This document shows positions 608-43,917 of a DNA stretch of 64,000 bases, piece by piece (position 1 is the first letter of the stretch; each line of letters begins with the position of its first letter). The translations under genes and the position numbers were made by a program. Under the pieces are notes generated by a model. The model saw only the letters and a list, made by a program, of their open reading frames with translations. It made no database searches and was not told where the DNA came from. The DNA lies in the NCBI GenBank assembly GCA_023412005.1, contig JAEYOE010000033.1, positions 23,344 through 87,343 on the forward strand. The letters run 5' to 3'. Source of the DNA: Bacillota bacterium. GTDB lineage: Bacteria > Bacillota > Clostridia > Christensenellales > SZUA-584.

Positions 608-752
608 TGCAGTTCCTCCTTTTTTGTTAGTTTCTCTGCTATATCGATTTATTATGCATTTTCTCTTTTTGCGGGTATCCTTTTTGATGCAAAAGGATAA
701 CAAGCCGCAATGATTGGCTATAATAAGTTTTATCAAAACAGCCGGAGACAAC

Positions 753-3062
753 ATGATCAGAAACGACGCTTGGCTGAAGGTCAGCGGAAAAGCTAAATAC
801 AATGACGATGATGTCAGCCGTTCATGCCTTCAGGCAAGGCTTTTAACAAGCGTATTCGCGCATGCGCGTATTCTCTCCATCGATACATCCGGCGCGTACA
901 TGGTGCCTGGCGTGCGTGCCATCGTCACCGGACGCGACTGTTTGCAGCTCATCGGTTCCGTGCTGCAGGATATGCCGGTGCTTGCGATCGACAGGGTGCG
1001 TTACTTCGGCGAACCCGTTGCGATCGTGGTGGCTGATGAAGAATGGCAGGCAGCCCAAGGCACCAAGCTGATACAGGTGGCGTACGACCCGTTACCGATC
1101 GTTAATTCCATTGAAGACGCCCTGATGCCAAACCCCACGCTGGTGCATCCCGCGCTGATGCAGTATACGCATACCGTGGAAGATGTTTACCCGGAAATGA
1201 ATTCAAATATATCAAACCGCACCCGTATAAGAAAAGGAAATATGCTATATGGCTGGGCTTGCTGCGACACCGTTGTCGAAGGAGAGTACCGCATTCCGCA
1301 AGCCGATCATGCCTTTATGGAAACGCGAAACGCGCGGGCGCAAATCCTTCCAAATGGACAGCTCCTTATCCGTTCCGCCTCTCAGGCCGCTCACGCGGCA
1401 AGAGCGCTGATTGCGAAGTTTTTCAAGCTGTCAGAAAGCAGCATCATTATTGAGACACCATTTGTGGGCGGCGGATATGGCGGCAAGGTGAATCCGCATC
1501 CGGAGATCATGGCCTTTGTGGCTTCTCATGCCGTTAACGGGCAGGAGGTTCGCCTGTCGTTCACGCGTGAACAAAGCTTTTATTCAAGTGCCTGCAAAAT
1601 CGGCGCGAAAGCGTACATGAAGCTGGGTGCAGATAAAACAGGCCGCCTGCAGGCCATACAGGTTCACTTCTTTATCGAATCGGGTGCTTATGCCGATACG
1701 TCACCCATCATGACGCGCGCTGCCGCCGCTAACTGCAGCGGTGCATACAATGTGCCGTGCATCGAATGCGATTCCGTCTGCGTTTATACCAACCACGTTT
1801 ATTCCACATCTTTCAGAGGCTTCGGGCACGAGGTGTCCACGTTTGCAATGGAGCGCACAATGGAAAAGCTTGCGTTGCAGCTGGGCATTGACTCTTGCGA
1901 ATTAAGACGCATCAATGCCCTGCGCGAAGGCGACTATACCCCGACGCAAACGAAGGTGACACTCAGCAACACAGGCAATCTTGATGGCTGCATAAGCCGG
2001 GTTAAGCAGCTTATCGCGTGGGATGACGGCGCTCGCATAGAAACGCAAGAGGCGATGATTCGCACAAAAGGCCTCGCGTGCTTTTCTAAAACCTCCAGTT
2101 CCCCCACCGACGCATCATCATCGGCTGTTGTGCAGTTTTGCTCAGACGGCAGCGTCAGCCTGAGTTGCAGCGTGATTGAGTGCGGCCCGGGCATGACCAC
2201 CGCGCTGCCGAAAATTCTCGCCGAGCGCCTGGGCATCAGCCTTGATAAGGTGGCCATGAACATGCAGATCAACACACAGTCGCATCCCGAGCATTGGAAA
2301 ACCGTCGCGAGCATGTCGACCTATATGGCGGGCAACGCCATTATAGCCGCCGCCGATGACGCGCTCCGTCAGCTCAAGGCCAACGCGGCGCTTGCTTTAC
2401 GCTGCCCCCCGGAGGACATTGTTCTTATAAACGAGACAGCGCAGCTTAAGGACGACGAAGCTGTATCTCTGCCGTTTAAAGAGATTGTGTTTGGCGTTAA
2501 AACAAAAGAAGGCAACGCAATGGGCGGCCCGGTGATCGGCTGCGGACGCTTTATCATGAAAAACCTCTCCCAGCTCGACCGAGAAACGGGCAAAGGTCAG
2601 CCCGGGCCATACTGGACAGTGGGCGCACAGGCTGTGGAAATTGAGTACGACCGCTTTTTGCAGACCTTTCGTTTGGTGAAGGCTGTCACCGTGATTGACG
2701 CGGGCAAAGTGATTTTGCCCGCGTGTGCGGCGGGACAGGTACTGGGCGGCATGAACACCGGCCTTAGCTTGGCCACACGCGAATGCTACCATTTCGACGC
2801 GACGGGCGAATTGAACGACACCAGCTTTCGCACCTACAAGCTCATGCACTTTCATGAAAACCCGGTTTTCATTGCAGAATTTATTGAAACACCGAATTTG
2901 AGCGGCCCAATGGGCGCGCGCGGTATTGCGGAGCACAGCGTACTCGGTATGCCGCCGGCTCTCGTTAATGCGCTATGCCTGGCTGCCGGCGTACAGCTCG
3001 ATACGCTGCCCGTTACATTCGAAAGCCTCTGGCAGGCAGCTAAGACCGGCGGTAATGGCTGA
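753..3062 (+). CDS. Xanthine dehydrogenase/aldehyde oxidase-family molybdopterin-binding large subunit
   Basis: About 770 aa with N-terminal a/b-hammerhead-like KVSGKAKYNDD, a GGGYGGK motif and family-typical length. ATG at 753 is preceded by GGAGA; the listed ORF start at 714 is a TTG without an RBS. Confidence 0.9.
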   Translation: MIRNDAWLKVSGKAKYNDDDVSRSCLQARLLTSVFAHARILSIDTSGAYMVPGVRAIVTGRDCLQLIGSVLQDMPVLAIDRVRYFGEPVAIVVADEEWQAAQGTKLIQVAYDPLPIVNSIEDALMPNPTLVHPALMQYTHTVEDVYPEMNSNISNRTRIRKGNMLYGWACCDTVVEGEYRIPQADHAFMETRNARAQILPNGQLLIRSASQAAHAARALIAKFFKLSESSIIIETPFVGGGYGGKVNPHPEIMAFVASHAVNGQEVRLSFTREQSFYSSACKIGAKAYMKLGADKTGRLQAIQVHFFIESGAYADTSPIMTRAAAANCSGAYNVPCIECDSVCVYTNHVYSTSFRGFGHEVSTFAMERTMEKLALQLGIDSCELRRINALREGDYTPTQTKVTLSNTGNLDGCISRVKQLIAWDDGARIETQEAMIRTKGLACFSKTSSSPTDASSSAVVQFCSDGSVSLSCSVIECGPGMTTALPKILAERLGISLDKVAMNMQINTQSHPEHWKTVASMSTYMAGNAIIAAADDALRQLKANAALALRCPPEDIVLINETAQLKDDEAVSLPFKEIVFGVKTKEGNAMGGPVIGCGRFIMKNLSQLDRETGKGQPGPYWTVGAQAVEIEYDRFLQTFRLVKAVTVIDAGKVILPACAAGQVLGGMNTGLSLATRECYHFDATGELNDTSFRTYKLMHFHENPVFIAEFIETPNLSGPMGARGIAEHSVLGMPPALVNALCLAAGVQLDTLPVTFESLWQAAKTGGNG

Positions 3063-3904
3063 TGATCGCTTACGATTTTGATTACTATTTGCCGGATACC
3101 GTGCAGGAAGCCGTGCAGATATACGATAAGCTCAGCAGACAGGGAAAGCAGCCCCTTTATTACGGCGGCGGCACGGAAATCATCAGCATGAGCCGCGTGT
3201 TTAACCGAAAACCGGATGCTGTGATTGATTTCAAGAGCATTCCCGAATGCAGGGGGATTGGCACAGACGGCAAGCGGCTCGTGATCGGCGCGGCATCCAC
3301 GCTGAATGATATCAAGCGCGCCAATGTGTTTCCATTGCTCGGGCTTGCGGCGGGCCGCATTGCGGACCATACGGTGCAATGCCGTCTCACGCTGGGCGGC
3401 AATCTATGCGGTACGATTATTTACCGTGAAACGCTGATGCCGCTGCTGCTGGCCAACGCCACTGTCGACATCGCGTTTCCCGAGGGTATGAAAACAATAT
3501 CTGTACATGAGGCCTTTGCCGACGGCAGACGGCCCGCGTCCGGCGAATTAATCGTCAGCGTGCATGTTGACAGTGCGGCGGCCGCAATACCGTGCTTTCA
3601 TATCAAGAAATCCAGAGCCGAAAAGATCGGCTATCCGCTGCTCACCCTATGCGTACTGTTCTTAGGCGAAACGCTTCGTTTCGCGGCGGGCGGGCTTTGC
3701 GCCCATCCGTTCCGATTCGCGGATATCACAGACACGCGCCAAGCATCCGCCGCTGATATCGCCGCCCGGCTTTTAAGCGCGATACCCGCCCCCGTGCTGG
3801 ATGACCTTGAAGGTTCGGCGGCATACCGTCTTTTTGTGTTTCAAAGGACTGTGGAGAAAATCATTATGGACTATAAAAAGAACCGAGAAGCGAGTCATGC
3901 TTAA
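3062..3904 (+). CDS. FAD-binding (CoxM/XdhB-like) medium subunit of the molybdoenzyme
   Basis: N-terminus Y..P.T..EA...L...GK...YYGGGTEII, typical of the PCMH-type FAD-binding domain. Start overlaps the stop of the large subunit by 1 nt. Confidence 0.85.
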   Translation: MIAYDFDYYLPDTVQEAVQIYDKLSRQGKQPLYYGGGTEIISMSRVFNRKPDAVIDFKSIPECRGIGTDGKRLVIGAASTLNDIKRANVFPLLGLAAGRIADHTVQCRLTLGGNLCGTIIYRETLMPLLLANATVDIAFPEGMKTISVHEAFADGRRPASGELIVSVHVDSAAAAIPCFHIKKSRAEKIGYPLLTLCVLFLGETLRFAAGGLCAHPFRFADITDTRQASAADIAARLLSAIPAPVLDDLEGSAAYRLFVFQRTVEKIIMDYKKNREASHA

Positions 3905-4376
3905 GCTGTCCGGCAAAAGCCTGATATCGCTGACTGTGAATAACCGCGTTTATGATGTGGCGGTGCGGCCTGCCGATACGCTTGTTTATGTGCTGCGCTA
4001 TCAGCTGGGGCTGACGGGCACGAAAATCGGCTGTGAAAACGGCGATTGCGGCGCATGCACCGTGCTGGTGGATGATTGGCCCACGAAATCGTGTTTGATG
4101 CTGGCCGTGGAAGGCATCGGCCATCGTATCACCACCATTGAAGGGCTCAGCGACACGCCGATCCAGCAGGCCTTTGCCGAGCAGCAGGCGTTTCAATGCG
4201 GCTTTTGTACGCCGGGGTTTATTATGGTGTGCCATTCCATGCTGCTTCATCACCCGAACCCGGACGATTTTACGATTGAAACATGGCTGCAGTCTAACCT
4301 GTGCCGCTGCACGAGCTATCAGGAGATAATGAGTGCCGTTCGCAGTGCGGCGGCTATCATGCAGCAATCGGGTTAA
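3897..4376 (+). CDS. (2Fe-2S)-binding small subunit of the molybdoenzyme
   Basis: Contains CENGDCGACTV and CGFCTPG...CRCTSY cysteine clusters. Internal ATG at 3897 overlaps the medium-subunit stop by 8 nt. Confidence 0.9.
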   Translation: MLKLSGKSLISLTVNNRVYDVAVRPADTLVYVLRYQLGLTGTKIGCENGDCGACTVLVDDWPTKSCLMLAVEGIGHRITTIEGLSDTPIQQAFAEQQAFQCGFCTPGFIMVCHSMLLHHPNPDDFTIETWLQSNLCRCTSYQEIMSAVRSAAAIMQQSG

Positions 4377-4449
4377 AAAAAGCGCCTTATTAATGGCAAG
4401 GTGAGCCTGTAAAAAGTTATTTTTTTCATTCCGTTGGAACGTAAACGAT

Positions 4450-4554
4450 CGAGGAATCCTCCTCTACAAAGCGCTTTTCATAGGATTCCTCGACAGGCTC
4501 GGAATGACACAACAAGGTTTATCGGCAATCTGAACAGTCACCGAAAGGTGACTG
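4450..4554. repeat. Structured intergenic element (two hairpins)
   Basis: CGAGGAATCCT (4450-4460) pairs with AGGATTCCTCG (4482-4492) and is followed by ...GCTCGGAATGACA. A second hairpin is GTCACC-GAAA-GGTGAC (4537-4552). It lies in a 380-bp non-coding gap. A related architecture occurs at 54165-54257. Confidence 0.4.
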
Positions 4555-4757
4555 TGGGAGATATCGCATCATAAAACCTACCACTCCTTCAGGCACTTTG
4601 TGACACATCCCAAGCCATCCCATTGGGATAGCCATCTGACAGTCGCCAAGCGGTGGATTTATACGCTAAAAACTCATGACAGCTTGGCGGCGCCATATCA
4701 AATAGCGATGTTTAAAACAGAGCAACCGGGCAATGATTAATAAACGAGGTGAAAGCT

Positions 4758-5483
4758 ATGCAATATGCGTTTATGTTTCCTGACGAACACAAAGCGGCTC
4801 AAGATAAAGGGCTGCCGCTTGTGATTCCAATCGGCAATTTGGAATACCATGGGCAGCACAGCGTCTGCGGTACCGATATCATCATCACGGAAGGCATCGC
4901 GAAACTGCTGGAAGCGCAGACCGATATCGTGCTGGCGCCTACATTTTGTTATGCGCCCTCCAGCTATGCGGCCTCAGGGCCTGAGCTAGGCACTGTGCAC
5001 CTCTGCATGGATGTGTTCGAGCAGTATATCAAGGGCGTGCTGCGCGCGTTCATAGAAGGCGGCTGGCAGAATATTTTCATTCTCATCCATCATCAGTTTG
5101 ATATGGAGCTGCTTTTTCCGCTGTCTCTCGCGTGCCTGAAGGCAGCCAAACAGCTTTTCTTCGACATGATGGAGCAGGAGCTGGGCCGCGGCTGGTTTGC
5201 ACGTGCGGGCAATTTGGAGGCTGTACTGAAAAAGATGAACACCGTGAAGGTGCTGCCTGTAATGAGCCGTGAGATACAGGAGGCCTTTGGGTATGATCAT
5301 GCGGGCAAGGTGGAATGCTCGCTGCTGGCCGCGCTGCACCAGCGCTTGATGCTTGTAAAGCCCTGGCGCGCCTCAGGGGGCGAGTGGTTCGCGAAAAGCG
5401 CGCCTGAGTTTTCAGCCGAAAACGGCTGGCAGATCATCAATCGCTGCTTGGAGGATTTGAAAAGCAAATTGAATAGCAATTAA
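4758..5483 (+). CDS. Creatininase (creatinine amidohydrolase)-family protein
   Basis: N-terminal LVIPIGNLEYHGQHSVCGTD matches the family metal-binding E-x-H-G-x-H...D motif. GAGGTG RBS lies 6 nt before the ATG at 4758. Confidence 0.75.
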   Translation: MQYAFMFPDEHKAAQDKGLPLVIPIGNLEYHGQHSVCGTDIIITEGIAKLLEAQTDIVLAPTFCYAPSSYAASGPELGTVHLCMDVFEQYIKGVLRAFIEGGWQNIFILIHHQFDMELLFPLSLACLKAAKQLFFDMMEQELGRGWFARAGNLEAVLKKMNTVKVLPVMSREIQEAFGYDHAGKVECSLLAALHQRLMLVKPWRASGGEWFAKSAPEFSAENGWQIINRCLEDLKSKLNSN

Positions 5484-5604
5484 CAAGTACGTATTAACTG
5501 CTTCAATGAAAAAAGCGCTGCAATTGCTTCGCGTGTCGTAGAGACCTTATCATAAAGACTCACTGAAAATTGCCTATTTATATCTCCGAATAACCTTTAG
5601 TTCA

Positions 5605-5640
5605 GTCACAAACAGAAGGATTGGTTTGTGACTTGTGTTA
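5605..5640 (+). terminator. Intrinsic terminator after the creatininase-family gene
   Basis: GTCACAAAC (5605-5613) / GTTTGTGAC (5624-5632) stem followed by TTGTGTT. Confidence 0.5.
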
Positions 5641-5677
5641 GCACGGTTTATCTATTTTAATCTATACCAGAATTATA

Positions 5678-5706
5678 TAAAAAGCGCCCCGTCACGTCGG
5701 AGCGCT
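5678..5706 (-). terminator. Intrinsic terminator after the polyprenyl synthase gene
   Basis: Minus strand reads AAGCGCTCCGACGTGACGGGGCGCTTTTTAT, a GC-rich stem followed by a U-tract, 8 nt past the stop. Confidence 0.65.
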
Positions 5707-5713
5707 TAACATC

Positions 5714-6688
5714 TTATTGAAATGTCAGATCGAGAATGCCTTTCAGCAGCTGCCGTCCCTCTGTATCGGGGAGCCTCTCAAGGCTCTTCTCGGCCTTCGC
5801 AATATACCTGTCGAGTATCGCCTGCGTTTTCACAATGCCGTCCGCCTCGGCCACCAGCTTGATAATACGCTTGATATCCCGCTGCACCGGCTCCTTCTTC
5901 TTCAGCCCGATTAAGAACGCCTCAACCTTCTCCCTCACACCGTTATCCTGCGCTGCCGCCATTAGTACCGGCAACGTCACCACACCTTCTTTAAGGTCGT
6001 TGCCGACCGGCTTGCCGATACGGCTCGGGTGCTCGGTCATATCCAGCAGATCGTCCTTAATCTGAAACGCGATGCCGTAATACGCGCCGAACTTCGCCGC
6101 CTGCTTCACGTCCTTTTCGTCAAGGCCGCCAAGATGGCTGCCCACCGCACAGCAGGCTGCAAACAGCACCGCCGTTTTGCGGCTGATGCGCGAGAGATAC
6201 GTCTTGATCCCCGGAAGCTTGCCGCGCCCGCGAAACTGCTCCACCTCTCCCACGCATATCGCCTCAACCGCCTTGGAAAGCTCAAGCAGATATTTCATGG
6301 GCAGCTCGGCTGCCGCCAGCGCCTGCATCGATTTCACGTAGATATAGTCGCCCGCGAACACCGCCGTGCTGACCCCCTGTGTGGCATACAAGGTGGGTTC
6401 ATTGCGTCTGATCAGCGAATTGTCAATGATATCGTCATGTATCAGTGTGGCGGTATGCAGCATCTCCACGCTGAGCGCCGTGCTGAAAACCTTGTCTCGC
6501 CGGTATTCCCCGAGCTTGGCAGCGGCTATCGTCATCGCCGGGCGAAGCCGCTTCCCCCCGCTGTTGATAATGTGCAGAGACAGCTTGTCTATAAAGGCAT
6601 TGATATTCTTTTTTGATGCAAATTGCTCATTAAGCAGCGCCTCAAACAGATCAAGCTCCGTTTGCAAAGCGGGCAGCTTTTCCCACAC
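5714..6688 (-). CDS. Polyprenyl diphosphate synthase (HepT/DmkB-like, long-chain trans-IPPS)
   Basis: First and second Asp-rich motifs LIHDDIIDNS and QIKDDLLD. GTG start with AAGGGGA RBS, 13 nt after the stop of the NDH-2 gene. Confidence 0.9.
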   Translation of the reverse strand: MWEKLPALQTELDLFEALLNEQFASKKNINAFIDKLSLHIINSGGKRLRPAMTIAAAKLGEYRRDKVFSTALSVEMLHTATLIHDDIIDNSLIRRNEPTLYATQGVSTAVFAGDYIYVKSMQALAAAELPMKYLLELSKAVEAICVGEVEQFRGRGKLPGIKTYLSRISRKTAVLFAACCAVGSHLGGLDEKDVKQAAKFGAYYGIAFQIKDDLLDMTEHPSRIGKPVGNDLKEGVVTLPVLMAAAQDNGVREKVEAFLIGLKKKEPVQRDIKRIIKLVAEADGIVKTQAILDRYIAKAEKSLERLPDTEGRQLLKGILDLTFQ

Positions 6689-6701
6689 GCGTTTTGTCCC
6701 C

Positions 6702-8609
6702 TTATTTCAGCTTTTTGTTGTTACCCCAAGTGAGCGTTAAACGCCCATTTTTCTTTGTGCCGTCCCAAACCTTTCCGAGATACGGCAGCACCCAATGATC
6801 AAGACCAAACGCACGGCCGGCACCCGCCGCCATCGCAATACCCGCAAACAGCATCCACCATGTGGTATCGTACATGCCCGTGGATGTTATGAACATCGCA
6901 ATCAGGCCAAGTGAAACGACGGACGAAAGGAACGTAAACGTACCCGAGAATATCGCAAGACCGACAATGATCTCAAGAATCACGATCAGCACCTGGAAGA
7001 ACATCGACCAACCCGGGGTTGCGAGAACCCAGCCGTTCAATATCCAATCAACGAGGAAAAAGTGAACACGGAACACCATCGGCTGCCCCTCGCCCGATCT
7101 TTCGAGGAAAAACCCGAGGAACCCAAGATCAATATTCATCAGCTTTTCAACCACAGCCGTTGCGCCTTGCGCAGCCCCCGTTGCACCTGAAACCGCCTCG
7201 GCACCCGTCGCGGTTGATGCCGCGTCCGCGCCCGATGTATACCCCAAAAAGCTTGCGAGCATCGGCTTGGTGAACCAGCCTTCCAGCACCTTCTTTAAGC
7301 CCTCGTAAAACCATGTCCACCCGAGGAACAGCCGCAGCGGCACCAGCCACCAGGCTTGAACGGTTTTGGTGTAGTTGCGCTGTAAAAAGCGTTTGTGCTG
7401 ACGTCTGTGCAGTATTTCGTCGCGCAGATAGTCCCATATACCTTTAACACCCATGATACCATAAAGGTAGTGCATATTGACCAGGTATTTCATAATTAGC
7501 GAAATCCATCGCCCAGGCTTCACGCCCATCAAGTCGGCCACTGCAAAGTAATTGCCGATGCTGACCATCACACCGTGCAGCTTTACCTTAACAGGCTCGG
7601 GGTTTTTGCCTCGTATATCGCTTAAAATATTCATCGCAGCGCCTTCACCCGTTTGCAGCGCGGTTTCCACCATGGCCGGGTACGGTTTGCCTTTTTCATC
7701 AAGCAGCGCGCCTACATCACCCACAGCATACACATTTTTATGCTTTGTCCGGCAGAATTCGTCAACAACAAGTCGTCGGCCAAGGCCTTTGTCCAAATCC
7801 GTTTTTTCTACATCCAGAGACGATCTCACACCGGCGGCCCAGATGAGCGTGCTCGTTTCAATCTTTCTTTCGCCGATATCAACAAACTCAGGTGTCACCT
7901 GCTTAATCGCTGTGCTGAGAATCACCTCGATATCGTGTTTGCCGTGCATATAATCATGCGCGCGCTTGCTGTTCTTGTCGCAGAGGTTGCTTAATATGCA
8001 ATCCAGCATATCCACGATAATCAGGCGGATTTCCTTACGGTCGATGCGGTGTGCGCGGCACAGCTTTTTCACCCATTGCGCCAGCTCGCCGATCATCTCC
8101 ACGCCGGTGAATCCAGCTCCGCCGACCACAAACGTCAGCAGACGTTTGCGGCGCTCTGCGTCCTTCTCTGTTTCCGCTTCAAAGAAGCAGCGTTCAATGT
8201 GCTCTCTGATTCGTATCGCATCGTCGACCGACCAAAGCGAGAAGCCATGCTCCTCCAACCCCGGTATCCCGAAATAATTCGGTGTGGACCCGACAGATAT
8301 GATCAGATAGTCATACGGGTATTCATTCGACGATGATTTGACTTTGCGAGAATCAAACTCATACCCGTTGATATTATCGATCACGAGGTTTACATTCGTG
8401 GTTTTGAATATGTCTTTCAGAGGTATCTTAACCGCATCTTCACCCACGCGGTTGCCCGCCACCTCATGAATTTCCGTTAGCAGCGTATGGTAAGGGTTGC
8501 GGTCGATAATCGTGATTTCAAGATCATCTTTTCTCCCTTTTTTGTTCAGCTTAAGGGCGGCTTCGATACCCGCATAACCGGCGCCCACAATCACAACTTT
8601 CTTGCTCAT
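6702..8609 (-). CDS. Type II NADH:quinone oxidoreductase (NDH-2) fused to a C-terminal multi-TM (DoxX-like) domain
   Basis: N-terminal KVVIVGAGYAG Rossmann motif and a second VVGGGFTGVE-type motif (VVGGAGFTGVE). The last ~230 aa contain about 4-5 hydrophobic helices (WWLVPLRLFLGWTWFYEGL...). GGGAGG RBS. Confidence 0.9.
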   Translation of the reverse strand: MSKKVVIVGAGYAGIEAALKLNKKGRKDDLEITIIDRNPYHTLLTEIHEVAGNRVGEDAVKIPLKDIFKTTNVNLVIDNINGYEFDSRKVKSSSNEYPYDYLIISVGSTPNYFGIPGLEEHGFSLWSVDDAIRIREHIERCFFEAETEKDAERRKRLLTFVVGGAGFTGVEMIGELAQWVKKLCRAHRIDRKEIRLIIVDMLDCILSNLCDKNSKRAHDYMHGKHDIEVILSTAIKQVTPEFVDIGERKIETSTLIWAAGVRSSLDVEKTDLDKGLGRRLVVDEFCRTKHKNVYAVGDVGALLDEKGKPYPAMVETALQTGEGAAMNILSDIRGKNPEPVKVKLHGVMVSIGNYFAVADLMGVKPGRWISLIMKYLVNMHYLYGIMGVKGIWDYLRDEILHRRQHKRFLQRNYTKTVQAWWLVPLRLFLGWTWFYEGLKKVLEGWFTKPMLASFLGYTSGADAASTATGAEAVSGATGAAQGATAVVEKLMNIDLGFLGFFLERSGEGQPMVFRVHFFLVDWILNGWVLATPGWSMFFQVLIVILEIIVGLAIFSGTFTFLSSVVSLGLIAMFITSTGMYDTTWWMLFAGIAMAAGAGRAFGLDHWVLPYLGKVWDGTKKNGRLTLTWGNNKKLK

Positions 8610-8625
8610 CTTTTCCTCCCAAGAA

Positions 8626-9555
8626 TTAAAAGACTAAACCGTCTAAAACGGCACTGACGACAAAAGATAAACCCAACAACTGATAGATTTGCACCGTGGC
8701 GACGTTTGATGCAATCAGTTTATTGATGCTGTTAAAATGACGGCGGCAATTGCAAACCGCTTTCACCGCTATGGGCACCGTGAGCAGCGGCAGCAGCCAG
8801 ATTGGGTTCTTGGCATACACCGCAACCGCGATGACCGACAGATAACTGAGCGCAAACAGCACCGCGTACACGGAGACACCCTTCTTCTTACCCATCCGAA
8901 CCACACCGTTTCTTTTGTTATGCGCTTTATCCACCTCATAATCAGGGTACTGATTGATCCATAGCACATTCATAATCATGAAGGCAATGGGCAGCGATGC
9001 GAGCAGCGGCAGCCAGTCGAACCGGCCCTCAATCAGCACATACACCCCCAACACAATCGCGGGACCAAACGCAAGCCCCACCGCGATTTCGCCGAAGCCC
9101 CTGTAGCACAGCTTAAAAGGCGGCAGGCTATAAATTACAGCCAACGCAAAGCCTGCAACCCCCGGCCAGAATATCAGCGGTTCCACAAACACAGCCAATG
9201 CCATGCCCAAAAGCGCTGCAGCAAGAAAGCAGACAATCGCTATGTAAAGGCATTGTGTCAGATCAAGCGCCCCCGTCGTGATAGACTTTTTACCGCCCGA
9301 GAACGGCGTTGCATGTTCTTCGTCCACATCGGGGTCTACACCAGACTGATAGTCGATCACCTCGTTAAGCGCGTTTTTGGCGATCTCCACAAGATACACC
9401 CCGATAACGGCCAATATAAACCATATAATGCTGAGAGGCTTCGTCTGATGACCGAATGTCCAAGCAATCGCCGCACCCGTCAGCATCGGTATGGTTGACG
9501 CAACCCAGATTTTCGGATCGGCCACTTGCCAAAAGCCCTTCATTAAAGCTTTCAT
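8626..9555 (-). CDS. UbiA-family prenyltransferase (1,4-dihydroxy-2-naphthoate polyprenyltransferase MenA/DmkA-like)
   Basis: 309 aa with about 8-9 TM helices and an N..NE..D Asp-rich motif (KNALNEVIDYQSGVD). It is first in a tight three-gene minus-strand operon. Confidence 0.85.
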   Translation of the reverse strand: MKALMKGFWQVADPKIWVASTIPMLTGAAIAWTFGHQTKPLSIIWFILAVIGVYLVEIAKNALNEVIDYQSGVDPDVDEEHATPFSGGKKSITTGALDLTQCLYIAIVCFLAAALLGMALAVFVEPLIFWPGVAGFALAVIYSLPPFKLCYRGFGEIAVGLAFGPAIVLGVYVLIEGRFDWLPLLASLPIAFMIMNVLWINQYPDYEVDKAHNKRNGVVRMGKKKGVSVYAVLFALSYLSVIAVAVYAKNPIWLLPLLTVPIAVKAVCNCRRHFNSINKLIASNVATVQIYQLLGLSFVVSAVLDGLVF

Positions 9556-9875
9556 CGATCTTTCCTTATCGCGATTGACAACATAGTATCAAACCGTTTT
9601 TTAGTTTACTAATGTTAATTATTACAATTCACTTTATTGCTAAACCATTTTTCAGTCTTGAAACACAATTCATAATGGTTATTAATACCACTTTATTATT
9701 TTGTGACTATATGGTAAAATTAGCACACTTAATTAGTAATGATTTGGTCATGAAATCATTGTATCTATTTTAGGTATAACAATCAAGACATTTTCTGATT
9801 ATCTTTTCGGTCGTTGGCTTTAGAAAAGCCAATACTGGTTATGATAGTCGGTAAGTGATATAAGGAGGAATGCAA

Positions 9876-10982
9876 ATGAAAAAGGTAATTTTATTGGTTT
9901 TGGTTATAATGATGATCGTCTCTGCTTTTGCCGGATGCGGCGCCAGCAACAACGCATCTGCGTCACCGTCAGCGAGCGAATCTACCGCAGAATCCGCAAA
10001 TGAATCGGCGGCACCGGGCGAAGTGTCATCGTCGGCTGTTAAAACAGGCCTTGGCAGCGATATTTCGCTTGCAAAGTCAGCCAGCGTCAGTGCCGATAAG
10101 GACGCGCTTGCGGAGATAGACACTGCGATGGCAGCTGTCACACTCGATGCCGACGGAAAAATCATCAACGTGAAGATTGACATGGTTCAGCCCATGGTCA
10201 ACTTTGATGCACAGGGCCAGCTGAAATCTGATACCAAGCAGGAAATCAAAACAAAAGTAGAGCTCGGAAATGCTTATGGCATGGCCAAGGCTTCCGGCAT
10301 CGGCAAAGAATGGTATGAACAGATTGCAGCGCTTGAAGACTGGATGGTTGGCAAAACCATCGACGAAGTGATGGGCATGAAAATGAATGAAGAAGGTGTC
10401 TCCACAGAAGCCGACCTCACTTCCAGCGTGACCATTCATGTTACCAGCTACCTTGCGGCTGTTCAGAAAGCCGTTGCAAACGCTAAAGATTTTGGCGCTG
10501 CCGTTTCGGGTGCAACAAAAACCGGCATCGGCAACGTCACTTCCATCGCGAAATCTGCGGGCGCCACAGCTGACGCAGACGCCGTTGCACAAGCTGATAT
10601 CATTATGGCAGCAGTCACGATCGATCAGGACAACAAAATCGTGGGTGTTGTGATTGACAACGGTCAAGTCAAGGTGAATTTTGACGCAAAAGGCATGCTG
10701 ATTACCGATGCAGCATCTAAGCCCAAAACAAAAGTGGAGCTTGGCGACGAATATGGCATGAAGAAGGCCTCTTCTATCGGCAAGGAATGGTACGAGCAGA
10801 TTGCGGCGCTTGGCCAGTGGATGATCGGAAAAACCATTGATGAAGTGAAAGCAATGAAGACCGCTCAAAAGGATGAGGCTCACCCGGCTGTTCCGGCCGA
10901 AGCAGACCTGACATCCAGCGTGACCGTCTCGGTGCAGGATTACATTGCAGCCGTGGAAAAAGCGATTGCAACTGCTGACTGA
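9876..10982 (+). CDS. Lipoprotein with two tandem FMN_bind-like domains (PplA-like candidate flavoprotein)
   Basis: Lipobox SAFAGC. Two ~150-aa internal repeats (KTG[LI]G...AAVT[LI]D.D.KI..V.ID...VNFDA.G.L...KTKVELG..YGM.KAS.IGKEWYEQIAAL..WM.GKTIDEV...ADLTSSVT). AAGGAGG lies 7 nt before the ATG at 9876. An ApbE gene is immediately downstream. Confidence 0.65.
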   Translation: MKKVILLVLVIMMIVSAFAGCGASNNASASPSASESTAESANESAAPGEVSSSAVKTGLGSDISLAKSASVSADKDALAEIDTAMAAVTLDADGKIINVKIDMVQPMVNFDAQGQLKSDTKQEIKTKVELGNAYGMAKASGIGKEWYEQIAALEDWMVGKTIDEVMGMKMNEEGVSTEADLTSSVTIHVTSYLAAVQKAVANAKDFGAAVSGATKTGIGNVTSIAKSAGATADADAVAQADIIMAAVTIDQDNKIVGVVIDNGQVKVNFDAKGMLITDAASKPKTKVELGDEYGMKKASSIGKEWYEQIAALGQWMIGKTIDEVKAMKTAQKDEAHPAVPAEADLTSSVTVSVQDYIAAVEKAIATAD

Positions 10983-11063
10983 TTCGTTTAAAATCTAGAT
11001 AATAATCCGCGAATAATCCCTCCGGCCTCGTGCCGGATGGATTATTTTGCGCTAAGAGGTCGT

Positions 11064-12149
11064 ATGAAAAGAACTGTTTTGCTCATTACATGTGTTTTGG
11101 TGCTGCTTTCGCTCTTTGGCTGTGCCCCGTCGCAAAAATACCAAAAATTCAGCGGCGAATTTCTGGATACTTTTGATACGTCTGTGATTGTGATGGCGTA
11201 CGCAAGCTCTCAGGAAGAGTTTGATGATATATTGAAGACGGTTTATGATACATTTACTAATCTTCACAAGCAGTTTGATATCTATCACGACTATGACGGC
11301 ATCAATAATGTAAAGACAATCAACGACAATGCGGGCATTTCACCCGTTAAAGTTGACTCAGCGGTTATCGACATGCTGGAAATGTCTAAAGAGTGGTATG
11401 ACAAAACGAACAGCATTGTGAACGTGGCAATGGGCAGTGTACTGCGCATATGGCATGATTACCGCGAGGCAGGCGAATATGACCCGTCTGTCGCCGAGGT
11501 TCCCCCCATCGATCAGCTTCGGGACGCGTCAATGCATACGGCTATTGATGATATGATTATTGATGAGCAGGCATCTACGGTTTATTTAACAGACAGCCGT
11601 ATGAGCCTTGATGTGGGTGCTGTGGCAAAGGGCTATGCCACCGAGGTGGCGGCAGACAGGCTCATTGAAAAGGGGTATGATTCTGTGCTGATCAGCGCAG
11701 GCGGTAACGTTCGCGCTGTGGGCGCGCCCAAGGATGGTGTCCGTAACAATTGGAGCGTGGGCATTAAAGACCCGGACAGCCCGCTGGCCGGTTCAACAGA
11801 TGAATCCAACTTGTTGGATGTCGCGTTTGTTAAGAACCTTTCTGTGGTCTCCAGCGGCGTGTACGAGCGGTTTTACACCGTTAACGGCGTGAACTATCAT
11901 CACTTGATTGATCCCGAAACGCTGATGCCGGCAGACTATTACAAAGCGGTCACCGTGGTGCTTGAGGATTCGGGGCAGGCAGATTTGCTGTCTACCGCGC
12001 TGTTTTTGATGCCGCCCGATGAGAGCCTTAAGTTTGCGGAAAGCCTTGACGGCGTGGAGGCTTTGTGGGTAATGCCGGATAATGAAATTATAACAACCTC
12101 GGGCATGAAAGATATGCTGCGTGATTTGGGCGGCGCAACGTACAATTAA
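11064..12149 (+). CDS. apbE: FAD:protein FMN transferase (ApbE/FmnB family) lipoprotein
   Basis: Lipobox LSLFGC. Family-typical SL DVGAVAKGYA, ISAGGN and HHLIDP motifs. AAGAGG RBS before the ATG at 11064. Confidence 0.9.
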   Translation: MKRTVLLITCVLVLLSLFGCAPSQKYQKFSGEFLDTFDTSVIVMAYASSQEEFDDILKTVYDTFTNLHKQFDIYHDYDGINNVKTINDNAGISPVKVDSAVIDMLEMSKEWYDKTNSIVNVAMGSVLRIWHDYREAGEYDPSVAEVPPIDQLRDASMHTAIDDMIIDEQASTVYLTDSRMSLDVGAVAKGYATEVAADRLIEKGYDSVLISAGGNVRAVGAPKDGVRNNWSVGIKDPDSPLAGSTDESNLLDVAFVKNLSVVSSGVYERFYTVNGVNYHHLIDPETLMPADYYKAVTVVLEDSGQADLLSTALFLMPPDESLKFAESLDGVEALWVMPDNEIITTSGMKDMLRDLGGATYN

Positions 12150-12166
12150 GCAATATAAGCTGCTGA

Positions 12167-12197
12167 ACAGACCCGGCACTTCCGAGTCTGTTTTTTA
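12167..12197 (+). terminator. Intrinsic terminator after apbE
   Basis: CAGACCCGG-cactt-CCGAGTCTG stem followed by TTTTTT. Confidence 0.7.
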
Positions 12198-12625
12198 TTG
12201 CATGAAAATTGCTTAGCTATTATAAAACCTATGTGAATGAAAGAACAAACTCTCTGTCGTTAAATAATTTAGTTATAAAGCCTTCTCCTTAAATGAGAAA
12301 GCCCAGGCGTCGATCACGATTGTTCCACAGACAGCACATCATGCTGCAAGCGCGTCCCTGTTTTTAGCCATTACCTCTCCCCGGGTCACCTAGCGGTGAC
12401 AACCCCCGATTAACGCAGCTTCTCAATCTGCGTTAATCGATTTTTATTATACATGCCTTAAGAGCACGGACTTAGCAACCGACACTATGCCCCATAAAGC
12501 GACAGTGTGTTATAAACTTTGCGGGTTCAGGTTCTGATGCCGTAAAAAAGCGGGCATCTCCCCCATTGATGAAAAGCTCCTGATATTGGGATTATTATTG
12601 CTGAGTTTGCTCAGGAAATAATCAA

Positions 12626-12652
12626 CCCCTCTTCAAGCATCTTGAAGAGGGG
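12626..12652 (-). terminator. Perfect 12-bp hairpin downstream of the ABC permease gene
   Basis: CCCCTCTTCAAG-cat-CTTGAAGAGGGG, about 75 nt past the stop of the minus-strand permease. The trailing tract on the minus strand is modestly U-rich. Confidence 0.5.
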
Positions 12653-12727
12653 TACAATATGATCTTGCCGCTTTAAGGGCGGCATAAGGAGGCAAAAGCT
12701 CCCGATAATTTAATTATCGTGCTGTTA

Positions 12728-17812: not shown

Positions 17813-19315
17813 ATGGATTTGAAAAAGCCATTAATAAAGCTGCAGGATGTGAATCTGGCACTGGAAAATTTCTCGTTGTCAAACATCAATCTTGAGCTTT
17901 ATGAAAATGAAATTCATGTGATCATGGGTGAAAACGGCGCGGGGAAAAGCCTTCTCATGCAAATTGTCGGCGGTGTTTTATCTCCTGATTCGGGAAAAAT
18001 ATTTATTAATGGCACCTTGGCAAAAAACAAAGGGTTTTCATCCGGCCTTTTTAACGACGTTATCTACATTCGACAAGATGCCACGATGCTTTCGCATCTT
18101 TCCGTCGCCGAAAATTTATTTTTCAATAATCTGCCGAGAAAATACAAATTCTTTCCGATGATCGATTACAACAAGCTCAACTATCTGTGTCAGCTTCTTA
18201 TCGACGATTTAGGACTGCCTGTCAGCACGCTAGACAAGGTTTCGCATTTGGGGTTTGCGCAAAGGCAGATCATTGAATTTTGCCGCGCCTATGTATCCGA
18301 TGCTAAAATCGTCATACTCGACGAGCCTTCTTCTGCCCTCTCTCAAAGCGAACGCGACCTGCTGTACCGCATTGTGAAAAAGATCAAGGAGCGCGGCGCA
18401 GGCGTGTTTTACATCACACACAGCATCGATGACGTTACGGTTTTGGGTGACAGAATCACGATCGTTAAAAAAGGTCACATCATCGGCACACGAATGGTTG
18501 CCGATTGTTCGCAGGAAGACATCATCCGTATGCTGAGTGCGCAAAACGTCAGCCAACGGTACCCCAAAATACATATTAAAAAAGGAAAGCAAACGCTCGC
18601 CGTTAGTGATCTTGGCTTTGAGGACAAGCTTTACAACATCAATTTTGAGCTGCATCAGGGCGAAGTGTTCGGCATTACCGGGCTTGCAGGCTCCGGGCGC
18701 ACACTGCTGGCCAACTGCTTGTTCGGGGCCGTTCCGAACGTGAAAGGCCAAATGTATATCAACGGTGCACCCATTAAGCTGGACAACCCGTATAAGGCCA
18801 TCAGCAACGGCGTCGCGCTGGTTCCCGAAAACCGGCTGACCGATTCTATATTCGGTTATCTGGATGTCAATAACAACGTGGCTGTGTCTTCACTGAAACG
18901 TTTTGCAAACTTCTTTTTAATCAACAACTCGGTACTCGAACAGGTGGTATCGGATTATGTGCAAAAGCTCAATATTCCTCAGCAGAACCTGCACAGCAAC
19001 ATACTCGAATACAGCGGCGGTAATCAGCAAAAAGCGGTGTTTGCGAAATGGATCATGAGCCGCGCGAAGATTTTTATATTGGATGAGCCGACGCGCGGGC
19101 TCGATATTGCCAGCAAGGTGGACATTTACAACTCCGTTAACGATCTGATTAAGAAAAAAGCGAGCGTTATCTTCATCTCTTCCGATATCGAAGAAATACT
19201 CGGCGTTTGCGACCGCGTTGCCGTGCTGGCCGACCACACTTTCGTGTGCAACGTGCCCACTGCCGACATCACCGTCGAAAAGGTTGTTGAGCTTTCCATG
19301 AGAAAAGAATCGTAA
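17813..19315 (+). CDS. Orphan CUT2-type sugar ABC ATP-binding protein (duplicated ABC domains)
   Basis: GENGAGKS and GLAGSGRT Walker A motifs, a YSGGNQQK signature and two Walker B motifs. GGAGG RBS. No permease or binding-protein gene shares its strand. Confidence 0.9.
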   Translation: MDLKKPLIKLQDVNLALENFSLSNINLELYENEIHVIMGENGAGKSLLMQIVGGVLSPDSGKIFINGTLAKNKGFSSGLFNDVIYIRQDATMLSHLSVAENLFFNNLPRKYKFFPMIDYNKLNYLCQLLIDDLGLPVSTLDKVSHLGFAQRQIIEFCRAYVSDAKIVILDEPSSALSQSERDLLYRIVKKIKERGAGVFYITHSIDDVTVLGDRITIVKKGHIIGTRMVADCSQEDIIRMLSAQNVSQRYPKIHIKKGKQTLAVSDLGFEDKLYNINFELHQGEVFGITGLAGSGRTLLANCLFGAVPNVKGQMYINGAPIKLDNPYKAISNGVALVPENRLTDSIFGYLDVNNNVAVSSLKRFANFFLINNSVLEQVVSDYVQKLNIPQQNLHSNILEYSGGNQQKAVFAKWIMSRAKIFILDEPTRGLDIASKVDIYNSVNDLIKKKASVIFISSDIEEILGVCDRVAVLADHTFVCNVPTADITVEKVVELSMRKES

Positions 19316-21572: not shown

Positions 21573-24500
21573 TTATTCCCAGCTTTCAATCGCCGCTGTA
21601 AAGCTGTCCCTCGCGTCATCAGGTATCACTGCGCTGAAAACCTCTTTGCCGTCCAGTGTGACGGTGAGTTTTTTTCTTCTCATACGGCGTGTCAGTCCGT
21701 CAGACAGTGTAATCCTTCCATCCGTGCTGTCCTTAATATCTGCGCGTTTCAAAGCGATCGTGAGCACATCGCGGCTGCGTCTGAGCCTTCTGATGACAAC
21801 AGCCTTTCTGGCTCGCCCGCTGCTTTGGCTGACCAGCGCTTCTATTTTCACATTACGCCACAGCAGCAGCAGGAATATCAGCAGCAGCCCAAGAGCCGTG
21901 CCGCCGCCCGCATAGGCATACCAGGGCAGCTCAGGCCTTGGCAGCCGCTGACCAAACGCGATATCTTCATCGGTAATGGTCACCTCTACGAGACGAACGT
22001 TGCCGTTTCCATCCATCACCTCAATCAGATAGGTGCCCGGCTTTATGTCTTCAAGCACGAGCGAATCCTGCCATTCGCCGTCCGGCAGCCTGATTTTTAC
22101 AGCATCCTTCACCACGTCCGTGGCGCTGACGCTCACATCGCCCGATACGGGCTCAGGTGTCTGTGTGGGCGCCGCAAAGGTCTCTTCCTCCGGTCCGGGT
22201 GCCCCCGTCTCCTTCTCGGCTATCTTAAACGGCCCGAACGTTTTGTTTGCCGTTAACCCAAACGCGTTTTTCGCATACGCATGGATGTAATACGTGCCGG
22301 GCTTGCTGATGAGAATATCGCTCTTATAGCTCTGGTAAGCGCCGGAGAACGTTTTTGACTCTGTCAGTGCGTAACCCTTGCCAACAATTTCCGACATATC
22401 ATCGGTAAACTTCAGCGATGCTTTGATATCCGTCAGCGTTGTTTCGCCGATGACGTAGCTGCCTGTGCTGCATTCTATAGCGGGCGGCGTTTCGTCAAGG
22501 CTATCTACCGTTACATTAAATTTGGTGCTGTTCCCAACGTTGTCCACAATCGTCATCGCGTAAACGTCATTCTTATCCGCAGTCCACGTCAGATCCGAAG
22601 ACGCTTTTTTTTGTGTGCCGTCCGGCATGATCAAATGGCTGTTGCCGCTGCCGCCCGGGTCAGCCGCGAGCGTGAACTTAAGCTGCGCTTTGTTGCCCGA
22701 TACCGTGACCTCTGTCTTGGGCATTACAGGCGCCATCTTATCGATTTTTATCAAATAACCGCCGAATTCGCCCACATTACCAAACTCATCAGCGGCCTGA
22801 ATAAACACGCTGTGAACACCGCTGACCACCGTTTTGCCCGATTCCGCAGCAAAGAGCTTATCCTCAGTCGCATATTTGAATGAAACCGTCGGCGCGTCTT
22901 CAACGGACACAGCCGTTACTGTCACGCTTTGGTTAGTCCATGTTCCTGCCGTATACGGTTTGCCGTCCGCTTTTGTCATCTTCACAACAATATTGACGGG
23001 AACGTTCTTATCAACCACCAGCTTGCCGGAGTAACCGTAACCGCTGGTGAACTCATCATCAGACGCGTTAACCCTGAACTGCAGGTTGGTGATGCTGGTT
23101 AACCCGAAAGGCAGTTTAAAGTCGTACGCCGTTTCATCGAGCCCCGTTTCAATCACGTTCCACGTTGCCCCATCAAAGTACTCAAGCGTATACGTCAGCG
23201 GGTCGCCGTCTATATCGTACCCGGTCCAAGTCACGTTCACCGTAGATTCGCCGCCGTAGCGCGAACCCTGAACGGGCGTATGCACCACCGGCACCGCAGG
23301 CGGGTCGTTCACGCTGTTAACGGCGACCGTGACCGTCGCGCTGTCTGTGCCGCCATGGCCGTCCGACATCAGATAGGTGAAGCTGTCGTCGCCCGCGAAT
23401 TGGTCAGCCGGTGTGTACGCCACCTTATTGTCTTTCATCTCTGCTTTGCCATGAGACGGTGCCCCGACGCTCGTCACCTTAAAGTCGTTTGTGGAATATA
23501 TCTGCCCGCTGTTGAGCCCGCCTTGTGTATCAACGTCCGTATCGTTTGCCAGCACGTTGATAACCACCATATCCTCGTCGTTCGTCACTGCCGTGTCGTC
23601 GTTCGCGATCGGTGCGTCGTTCACCTGCCGTATGGTCACCGTCACCAGCGCCTTATCCGCAGTGTCTCCGTCCGATAGCTTGTACTCAAAGCTGTCCGTG
23701 CCGTTGAAATTGGCCGTCGGCGTATATTTCACCTGGTTGCCGTCCAGCTCGGCTGTGCCGTGCGCCGGCAATTTCAGGCCGGTGTCTCCCAGCGAGAGCG
23801 TTAATGTCTCGTCCTCGGGATGCGCATTCAGCTCTGTTTTCGTGTCCTGATCCGTATCGTTCAAAAGCGCGCTGATCCAAACCGGCTGATCTTCGTTGGT
23901 TTGTGCACTGTCATCAACAGCATCCGGCGCGTCGTTCACCTGCGCCACCGTGACGGTCACAACGCCCGTATCCGATGCGTTTGAAGGGTCTTTAACCGTA
24001 TACGTGAAGCTGTCGGTGCCGTTCCAGTCTTTGTTCGGGGTATACCGGATATCCGTGCCGTTCACGCTTACCGTTCCGTGCGCGGGCCGTCCGGTTGTTT
24101 CCACCGTCACTGTCAGGCTGTCGCCGTCCACATCATGAATCAGCGACCCGACAGGCACATCCACCGCCGTGTCTTCATTTGTGGAAGCGGTGGTGTCAGC
24201 CGCTGTGGGCGCATCGTTTACAGGCTTTACCGTGATGGTGATCGTCCCCGTATCCGTTGTATCGGCAATATCGCTGACTGTGTAATCAATCGACACGGTG
24301 CCATGGTAGTTTGCGTCAGGCGTGTAGGTCACGTCTCCGTCTTTATCAGTGCTGATTGTTCCATGCATCGCGCCAACATCTCCGAGCAAACCGTCCAGTT
24401 CAAGCACGTCGCCAATATCCTGATCCGTATCGTTACCGAGTACATTGAAGGTGATCGGTGTCTCTTCGTTTGTCTCCACGACATCATCCACAGCCTTCGG

Positions 24501-37456: not shown

Positions 37457-37505
37457 TCCAAAAACCCTTGATCTATTCGGAAAGGAGCGTTTCATCTCCA
37501 TCAGG

Positions 37506-43915: not shown

Positions 43916-43917
43916 TT

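Follow-up and report, generated by a model that had tools for sequence, protein, structure and literature searches.

Flavin-based extracellular electron transfer (FLEET) is the main known electron-dumping route of cytochrome-less Gram-positive fermenters. A 64,000-nt stretch of contig JAEYOE010000033.1 (hereafter the window) contains at positions 5714-12149 a gene cluster which raises the question of whether an uncultured, Christensenellales-like member of the Clostridia possesses such a module, and by which route quinol electrons would reach the cell surface. The locus is read here as a FLEET-type module which probably exports cytoplasmic electrons; the probability of this reading is put at roughly 0.7. 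Its most interesting lead is a conserved motif in a predicted outward loop of the type II NADH dehydrogenase (NDH-2), which ApbE may flavinylate, thereby connecting quinol with the surface flavins. This motif was absent from an earlier interpretation of the same DNA (the sequence-only reading), whose five open reading frames (ORFs) were all recovered at the positions given there:

5714-6688, minus strand: polyprenyl diphosphate synthase (DmkB/HepT-like), 324 aa, last gene of the minus-strand operon
6702-8609, minus strand: type II NADH dehydrogenase (NDH-2), 635 aa, middle gene of the operon
8626-9555, minus strand: UbiA-family, MenA-like prenyltransferase (DmkA-like), 309 aa, first gene of the operon
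9870-10982, plus strand: two-repeat surface lipoprotein in the PplA position, 370 aa, probable start at 9876
11037-12149, plus strand: ApbE-family flavin adenine dinucleotide (FAD):protein flavin mononucleotide (FMN) transferase lipoprotein (FmnB-like), 370 aa, probable start at 11064

The minus-strand genes are separated by gaps of 13 and 16 nt, as had been reported. Gram-positive clusters for extracellular electron transfer (EET) have been defined operationally by an NDH-2 (K03885-type) that has one or more transmembrane helices and is encoded in a gene cluster containing apbE (Meheust et al. 2021, PMC8238504). The window locus falls within this definition: Pyr_redox_2 (7e-39; dehydrogenase part, residues 1 to ~400) is combined with a four-helix C-terminal domain, and apbE is located 2.4 kb from NDH-2 in the divergent unit.

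For the quinone-synthesis enzymes, the identities proposed before were borne out. The 5714-6688 product, then called a long-chain polyprenyl synthase, matched Pfam polyprenyl_synt (9e-63), and HepT was its top NCBIfam model (242 bits, under the cut-off of 456). The 8626-9555 product, then called a UbiA/MenA-like prenyltransferase, matched Pfam UbiA (3e-30); its top NCBIfam models were all 1,4-dihydroxy-2-naphthoate polyprenyltransferase (MenA), all under cut-off. Both the DmkA-like and the DmkB-like gene share the operon with NDH-2, which corresponds, at family level only, to the dedicated quinone synthesis of FLEET.

Motif in the C-terminal loop of NDH-2

The C-terminal part of NDH-2 contains the following features:

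6702-7397, minus strand: DoxD/DoxX/MauE-like four-helix membrane domain, NDH-2 residues 405-635 (~230 aa)
7179-7226, minus strand: a pair of flavinylation-like motifs, DAASTAT (residues 462-468) and EAVSGAT (residues 471-477; 7179-7199), within the loop predicted to face outward

The sequence-only reading had described an NDH-2 with a ~230-aa C-terminal membrane domain, and this description held. When the C-terminal 232 aa were searched in isolation, Pfam DoxD was matched marginally (25.9 bits vs a cut-off of 22.7) and DoxX and MauE were sub-threshold. Homologues carry precomputed PF07291, PF04173 or PF07681, and several are annotated as MauE, DoxD or DoxX. Transmembrane helix 1 spans residues 418-441 and helix 2 residues 534-556, and a conserved GAGRAFGLD is found at residues 596-604. 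The segment preceding helix 1 has a charge of +6, the long loop behind it -4 and the C-terminal tail +6. Since the NADH-binding domain is necessarily cytoplasmic, this charge pattern places the loop (residues 442-533) outside, with the topology predicted as N-in, loop-out, C-in. The AlphaFold2 (AF2) model of the membrane domain is of low confidence (predicted local distance difference test score, pLDDT, 62.5); the helix positions agree and the loop is predicted to be disordered (pLDDT <50).

NDH-2 homologues of ~635 aa number >2,400 in Clostridia. The membrane-domain family is small: among 1.84 billion proteins, it forms 243 clusters when grouped at 50% identity. A scan of GTDB with a narrower membrane-domain alignment returned Clostridia and a few other anaerobes, and no Bacilli. 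Cluster look-ups of 20 distant representatives gave names of metagenome-assembled genomes (MAGs), Alkalibaculum and Spirochaetes only, and no Ndh2 of Listeria, Enterococcus or Lactobacillus. A tblastn search for NDH-2 against plasmids yielded a single Acetoanaerobium record.

Directly after the first helix, residues 460-477 of the loop read G-A-D-A-A-S-T-A-T-G-A-E-A-V-S-G-A-T. The motif recognized by ApbE is D-x-x-[S/T]-G-A-[S/T] according to an ApbE review, in which flavinylation was still ~50% after a G-to-A or A-to-V change and the effect of D-to-A was minor (PMC12052999). Homologous loops were drawn from 120 close homologues, 150 distant representatives and the fetched loci, and were delimited from profile position 41. 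The pattern [DE]xx[ST][GAST]A[ST] was present in 184 of the 224 distinct loops, while composition-preserving shuffles (200 trials) gave 2.45 motif-bearing loops on average and 7 at most. In 121 loops, the distance from the loop start to the motif is 15-19 residues. Given this excess and the fixed position, the explanation that the Ala/Ser/Thr-rich loop is mere low complexity was ruled out. In most of the other loops, position 4 of the motif is Ala or Gly instead, and tandem copies occur in many proteins. The strict form D-x-x-[ST]-G-A-[ST] was found in 22/224 loops (0.32 expected).

Within the window, [ST]GA[ST] occurs just twice in ~19,080 aa of protein, namely in EAVSGAT of the NDH-2 loop and in AAVSGAT of the lipoprotein linker. 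Both sites read AVSGAT and both are inside this cluster.

Gene context was compared in 80 loci from GTDB species representatives, which were retrieved using the NDH-2 membrane domain as probe and whose ORFs were screened by hidden Markov models (HMMs) and phmmer. Among loci with full flanks the loop motif goes with apbE (34/2 vs 5/4, Fisher p=0.01, a statistic which ignores phylogeny); 34 of the 36 full-flank apbE loci carry it. The C-terminal loop of NDH-2 is accordingly a predicted extracytosolic segment which has an ApbE-type motif and is co-located with apbE.

The lipoprotein, ApbE and the supply of FAD

Across the 80 loci, a polyprenyl synthase was found in 68, ApbE in 59 and the lipoprotein family of the window in 57; EetA and EetB were both present in 32. 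The lipoprotein gene and apbE are closely coupled. In 54 of 60 independent loci, apbE is on the same strand downstream of the lipoprotein gene, and in 52 of 60 the two are directly adjacent. In Paenibacillus and Fonticella, the pair occurs alone with no NDH-2 nearby. Such a conserved pairing is as expected of an enzyme and its substrate. Different genera share the divergent operon arrangement. A Pseudobutyrivibrio locus (L008) has the complete set of UbiA, NDH-2, polyprenyl synthase, the lipoprotein family, ApbE, NusG_II (EetA) and PF07456 (EetB). A Christensenellales MAG (L013) has the divergent layout of the window, with eetA-eetB ahead of the lipoprotein gene at the position equivalent to 9556-9869. 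In Clostridia, the PplA position is thus occupied by the lipoprotein family of the window.

Eight of the 59 ApbE-bearing loci are without the lipoprotein. EetB, NDH-2, polyprenyl synthase and ApbE are encoded in L056 (Thermoclostridium caenicola DSM 19027, 2834-7621) and in L040 (7626-12817), the latter with EetA in addition. Since neither cluster contains a lipoprotein gene, the NDH-2 loop, with DSQSAAT and DSHSAAT, respectively, is the sole candidate substrate of ApbE within those clusters. Thermoclostridium caenicola and Sporobacter termitidis (DSM 10068) are cultured organisms with an NDH-2 locus lacking this lipoprotein. Loci with the NDH-2 membrane domain were also retrieved from the cultured species Ruminiclostridium cellobioparum, Acetobacterium bakii and Anaerobacterium chartisolvens.

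A different lipoprotein was observed in a Clostridiaceae MAG (L079, 6628-7686, plus strand), where a 346-aa two-repeat protein is encoded between polyprenyl synthase and ApbE. The string DAVTSAS heads each of its repeats; the protein lacks any Pfam domain and does not resemble the family of the window. It may be another unrecognised flavinylation substrate.

The lipoprotein of the window has a lipobox (FAGC at 9927-9938) and two homologous repeats of ~155 aa each (repeat 1, ~residues 55-208; repeat 2, ~residues 214-370), which contain or flank three sites:

10413-10433, plus strand: DLTSSVT, candidate FMN acceptor of repeat 1 (Thr188), aligns with SGAT of 2kzx and of the L073 family
10500-10517, plus strand: AVSGAT in the inter-repeat linker (residues 211-216), shared by close relatives of the window only, not family-wide
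10905-10925, plus strand: DLTSSVT, candidate FMN acceptor of repeat 2 (Thr352), on the same basis as repeat 1

More than 2,100 homologues belong to the family; hardly any has a Pfam domain, and a few are named 'FMN-binding protein' in UniRef. Remote homology to FMN_bind was indicated by three weak but concordant comparisons. The family profile matched PDB entry 2kzx (E=0.0045), with T-S-S-V-T falling on S-G-A-T of 2kzx; the matched fragment is itself Pfam FMN_bind (1.9e-5). The family consensus was aligned along the entire FMN_bind model, although below significance (11.1 bits vs a cut-off of 22, E=0.65). With hhalign, the repeat alignment was compared to a genuine FMN_bind lipoprotein family, i.e., the L073 lipoproteins P0411-P0442 from a FLEET-like locus, which are Pfam-positive and carry DAISGAT. 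A P-value of 1.5e-4 and a probability of 51% were obtained over 67 columns, and SSVT was again placed on SGAT. Across the family, the acceptor site reads D/E-L-x-[S/T/A]-[S/K/T/G]-[V/A]-[T/S], in which the final T/S is nearly invariant. The G-A of the canonical motif is replaced by S-V in the window and by K-V, S-A, T-A or G-A in relatives, with D, [S/T] and the acceptor T/S kept; examples at this position are DLATGAT in L026 and DLVTSAT in L027. The AF2 model of the lipoprotein (pLDDT 90.9) shows both repeats as one unit. Its top Foldseek matches were IscU (E ~0.02, low TM-scores) and class I MHC platforms and are uninformative. Single-repeat versions of the family (~180 aa) were seen in L022 (11820-12383), L045 (4370-5089) and L026 (11755-12378).

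S/TGAT occurs once or twice in canonical PplA/Cad proteins, which have been modelled on the FMN-bind1 structure 3o6u (PMC7074142). The window lipoprotein does not have Pfam-recognised FMN_bind domains each with [S/T]GA[S/T]; the homologous site is SSVT. We conclude that it is a putative divergent FMN_bind-type protein with a drifted acceptor motif, and not a recognisable PplA. Of the earlier description as a lipoprotein of two FMN_bind-like repeats, the lipobox and the two repeats stand, while its relation to FMN_bind is reduced to remote homology with no Pfam match. The comparison with the Listeria component list, also made earlier, holds in the same partial manner: the operational definition applies, and the DmkA-like, DmkB-like and ApbE genes are present, but PplA is not recognisable.

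The 11037-12149 product matched Pfam ApbE (4e-62) and has a lipobox (LFGC at 11112-11123), as had been proposed for an ApbE-family FMN transferase lipoprotein. Its PDB matches include Ftp of T. pallidum (4xdt, 1.5e-37) and FmnB of L. monocytogenes (7esa, 2.5e-35), to which it is equally close. It belongs with FmnB as an extracytosolic ApbE-family FMN transferase. A short hairpin, rich in G+C and followed by a T-rich tail, is located at 11021-11037 (plus strand) between the lipoprotein gene and apbE, and overlaps the upstream ATG of the apbE ORF. This hairpin, a consensus match only, could reduce the expression of apbE relative to the lipoprotein gene.

Genes for EetA, EetB, FmnA or RibU had not been seen in the window, and our searches agree. 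Pfam scans of the ORFs of the 64-kb window found no PF07009 (EetA), PF07456 (EetB), CbiQ or energy-coupling factor (ECF) S component. The precomputed Pfam annotation of contig L001, a metagenome scaffold which is 99% identical over 14 kb and covers window positions 1-19.6 kb, contains no eet or ECF families. EetA and EetB of L008 had no phmmer match among all window ORFs of at least 50 aa, and the intergenic regions 9556-9869 and 12150-12727 contain no plausible ORF for a small membrane protein. EetA, EetB and FmnA are accordingly missing from the locus within 64 kb. In the clade of the window itself, eetA and eetB are likewise missing within 10 kb in 15/16 loci; their absence is a trait of the whole clade and not a peculiarity of the window. 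An ATP-binding cassette (ABC) ATPase at 17813-19315 and the two following ORFs of ~225 aa were considered as an ECF-type flavin transporter. This candidate was rejected because the second ORF is AIM24, the first is without ECF, CbiQ or PF07456 signal, and the ATPase goes with a sugar-type ABC system.

From the missing genes, it had been deduced that the module is either split across the genome or wired differently, and this deduction is not supported in that form, as it presupposes that EetA and EetB are electron carriers. In an ECF-type exporter which supplies FmnB with FAD, EetB is the S subunit and FmnA the T subunit, and deletion of eetA in Listeria had no EET phenotype (Rivera-Lugo et al. 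2023, PMC9973259). Because EetB and FmnA export FAD, the missing eet genes concern cofactor supply and not electron wiring. That the clusters of a whole clade can dispense with EetA and EetB is in line with this revised role in FAD supply.

Proposed electron route and rival explanations

We infer the following route, including the quinone, the flavinylation of either protein, each redox step, and the direction and end-point of electron flow. NADH would be oxidised by the cytoplasmic domain of NDH-2, and the electrons would reduce a membrane naphthoquinone. For the synthesis of this quinone, the MenA-like UbiA protein would join a naphthoate head group to the polyprenyl chain provided by the co-operonic synthase. 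At the outer face of the membrane, the ApbE lipoprotein would transfer FMN from FAD to Thr/Ser acceptors via a phosphoester bond, with the FAD coming from genes outside the window. The two-repeat lipoprotein would receive FMN at the Thr of each DLTSSVT and pass electrons on to external acceptors. Quinol would be reoxidised at the fused DoxX-like domain of NDH-2, which appears to be the most likely route to a surface flavin. From there, electrons would move to FMN on the outward NDH-2 loop and/or on the lipoprotein, and then either to external acceptors or to flavinylated reductases whose genes are located elsewhere.

Several observations weigh against reading the locus as a FLEET-type module. 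The lipoprotein of the window does not match Pfam FMN_bind (PF04205) even at E=10. Even the L026 relative with DLATGAT is missed by this Pfam model. In addition, the S-S-V-T core differs from the canonical motif at two positions simultaneously. A Foldseek search of the lipoprotein model against the PDB returned nothing at E<=0.001, and neither NqrC, RnfG nor 3o6u was among the top 50. Neither eetB, fmnA or ribU, which would account for the supply of FAD, nor men genes, which would account for the naphthoate head group, are present in the 64-kb window.

One rival would be a housekeeping NADH:menaquinone segment of an anaerobic respiratory chain, to which the lipoprotein and ApbE are unrelated. 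A menaquinone chain ordinarily includes NDH-2 together with MenA-like and HepT-like enzymes, and no second copy of any of the three genes is present within the window. However, all three enzymes score under the NCBIfam equivalog cut-offs for housekeeping proteins, and the NDH-2-fused membrane domain belongs to a small family (243 clusters at 50% identity) which co-occurs with ApbE (59/80) and with EetA/EetB (32/80) in a divergent arrangement conserved across genera. We consider the housekeeping explanation very improbable. It is also conceivable that the chain is the proposed one and that its end-point is formed by one or more extracytosolic reductases, flavinylated and acting on soluble organic acceptors, whose genes lie outside the window. 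Neither FAD_binding_2 nor a fumarate-reductase-like gene was found in the 64-kb window, and a dedicated lipoprotein is conserved in the cluster regardless. We regard such an end-point as rather unlikely.

A further possibility is that NDH-2 is the main or only substrate of ApbE. FMN on Thr468 and/or Thr477 would then make NDH-2 a self-contained conduit from NADH to surface flavin; the lipoprotein would be an accessory which binds free flavin or docks acceptors, with no covalent FMN at SSVT. The loop motif is far more frequent than in shuffled sequences (184/224 vs 2.45 expected) and fixed in position, EAVSGAT is near-canonical whereas SSVT is not, and the motif is associated with apbE (34/2 vs 5/4, phylogeny ignored). 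The lipoprotein is missing from L056 and L040 and from 8/59 ApbE loci. ApbE is known to label the unstructured tails of FMN_red proteins (Huang et al. 2024, PMC11334425). Furthermore, part of the EET activity of two species does not depend on PplA: E. faecalis requires Ndh3 and EetB but can do without PplA (PMC9864754), and L. plantarum requires Ndh2 and needs PplA only conditionally (PMC8837199). A flavinylated NDH-2 loop would fit these data and the lipoprotein-less clusters. On the other hand, most loop motifs have Ala or Ser at the Gly position (22/224 are strictly canonical), and no report of a flavinylated NDH-2 was found in the literature searched, an incomplete collection which omitted Light et al. 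The pairing of lipoprotein gene and apbE (52/60), which extends to loci without NDH-2 in the vicinity, speaks for the lipoprotein itself being a substrate, and the terminal Thr/Ser of its motif is nearly invariant. We regard an exclusive or dominant role of NDH-2 as rather unlikely. Flavinylation of the loop and flavinylation of the lipoprotein are mutually compatible.

Within the FLEET-type reading, we tentatively propose, at clearly less than an even chance, that the DoxX-like domain of FLEET-type NDH-2 is a substrate of ApbE, that FMN on its loop takes electrons from quinol, and that the lipoprotein family is flavinylated as well. The carriers from reduced demethylmenaquinone (DMK) to ferric iron were stated to be unknown (Hederstedt 2022, PMC9864754). 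If the proposal is true, the D-A-x-S-x-A-T loop with at least one FMN would make NDH-2 the missing link from the quinone pool to surface flavoproteins and extracellular acceptors. This would explain why EET needs FAD export and ApbE despite a dispensable PplA, and why clusters with ApbE but without the lipoprotein exist; EetA and EetB would not need to carry electrons. It would also reveal a flavinylated family of >2,100 members with a drifted S-S/K-V-T acceptor motif, unseen by current profiles. In Clostridia, the role of PplA would be filled by this large lipoprotein family, which domain libraries miss and which censuses based on Pfam FMN_bind would overlook. The conserved outward motif of NDH-2 turns the missing step from quinol to the surface into a testable hypothesis. 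Should the motif not be flavinylated, the locus would be an ordinary, though divergent, member of a known system.

Surroundings of the locus and comparison with known systems

Two further features belong to the transcription units:

5682-5707, minus strand: terminator-like hairpin, 10-pair stem with 7 G-C and a T-rich tail, 7 nt past the operon stop, consensus match only
9556-9869: divergent intergenic region with promoter-like sites in both directions

The promoter-like sites of the intergenic region are TTGATT-17-TACAAT at 9786-9758 on the minus strand and TTTTCA-16-CATAAT at 9649-9676 on the plus strand. An Rfam scan of the cluster and its vicinity detected neither riboswitches nor any other RNA family, and none at gathering score in 9556-9869.

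On one side, the cluster adjoins a xanthine-dehydrogenase-like trio (molybdopterin, FAD_binding_5 and 2Fe-2S subunits; 714-4376, plus strand), whose position is kept in L001 and L003-L005. On the other side, a block of ~8.6 kb with sugar-ABC, DeoR and AIM24 genes (12.7-21.4 kb) separates apbE from a giant ORF of 5,122 aa (21573-36941, minus strand), which has Big_9, Cadherin_4 and Cadherin_5 repeats and encodes a giant surface protein. In L003-L005, the homologue of the giant protein is directly downstream of apbE. Farther away, a T-box leader (Rfam RF00230, 99.9 bits, 37181-37433) precedes a complete trpE-G-D-C-F-B-A operon and then DAHP synthase (37181-44931 in total, plus strand). A tRNA gene is located at 49564-49654 (plus strand) and a type III glutamine synthetase gene at 61179-63260 (minus strand). 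The anaerobic ribonucleotide reductase NrdD and its activase are encoded at 57913-60706 (minus strand), which is consistent with a strictly anaerobic host. The organism is represented by metagenomes only; the 99%-identical scaffold set is ERZ28598022 at ENA. Identity to the GTDB representative 'Bacillota bacterium OH_CDB_207' (L009, contig JAEZIW010000247.1) is 94%, and MAGs of Christensenellales and Christensenellaceae are the nearest relatives with a name.

The FLEET locus of Listeria monocytogenes (lmo2634-lmo2641), which Light et al. are said to have described in 2018, reportedly encodes DmkA, DmkB, Ndh2, PplA, FmnB, EetA, EetB and FmnA. At family level, the window shares with it a MenA-like prenyltransferase, an NDH-2 extended by a C-terminal membrane part, a polyprenyl diphosphate synthase and an ApbE-family lipoprotein; both loci also have a two-domain surface lipoprotein beside apbE. 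In contrast to Listeria, eetA, eetB and fmnA are absent within 64 kb, the genes are arranged in two divergent units, and the host is of a strict-anaerobe clostridial lineage. The lipoprotein is of another, Pfam-invisible family with repeats of ~155 aa and S-S-V-T in place of S/T-G-A-S/T. Closer counterparts are the Pseudobutyrivibrio and Christensenellales loci L008 and L013. They have the same five genes and the same lipoprotein family, and L013 is also divergent in layout; they differ in that EetA (NusG_II) and EetB (PF07456) are inside the cluster, which the window and 15/16 clade loci lack.

With regard to the lipoprotein, FMN-bind2 has been described as domains of ~160 aa, larger than FMN-bind1, which occur in even numbers, form pseudo-symmetric pairs sheet-to-sheet and have one site per domain (Huang et al. 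2024, PMC11334425). The window repeats resemble FMN-bind2 in their size and in occurring as a pair. The published examples were found via Pfam FMN_bind and the canonical motif, whereas the family of the window fails Pfam (E=0.65) and its motif has drifted. The small FMN_bind lipoproteins (2kzx and L073 P0411-P0442) are likewise lipoproteins beside apbE in FLEET-like loci, and share a C-terminal half of the form Y-x-M ... W-x-x-Q-A ... D-x-x-S-x-x-T-I with the acceptor aligned. Unlike the window protein, they consist of a single domain of ~130 aa with the canonical DAISGAT and a Pfam match, and the N-terminal beta half of the window repeats does not align with them.

For the proposed NDH-2 site, the tails of FMN_red proteins and the inserts of Flavodoxin_4 provide the precedent that ApbE acts on a short motif in a flexible segment outside FMN_bind. 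In those proteins, flavin is already bound non-covalently at the site, whereas the NDH-2 loop is part of a DoxX-like domain with no known flavin site. Within the DoxD/DoxX/MauE superfamily (e.g., the thiosulfate:quinone oxidoreductase DoxD), the four-helix membrane domain is shared, and the DoxX-like domain of NDH-2 would presumably interact with quinone. The domain of the window differs from other members of the superfamily in being fused to NDH-2 and in having a long Ala/Ser/Thr-rich outward loop with the motif.

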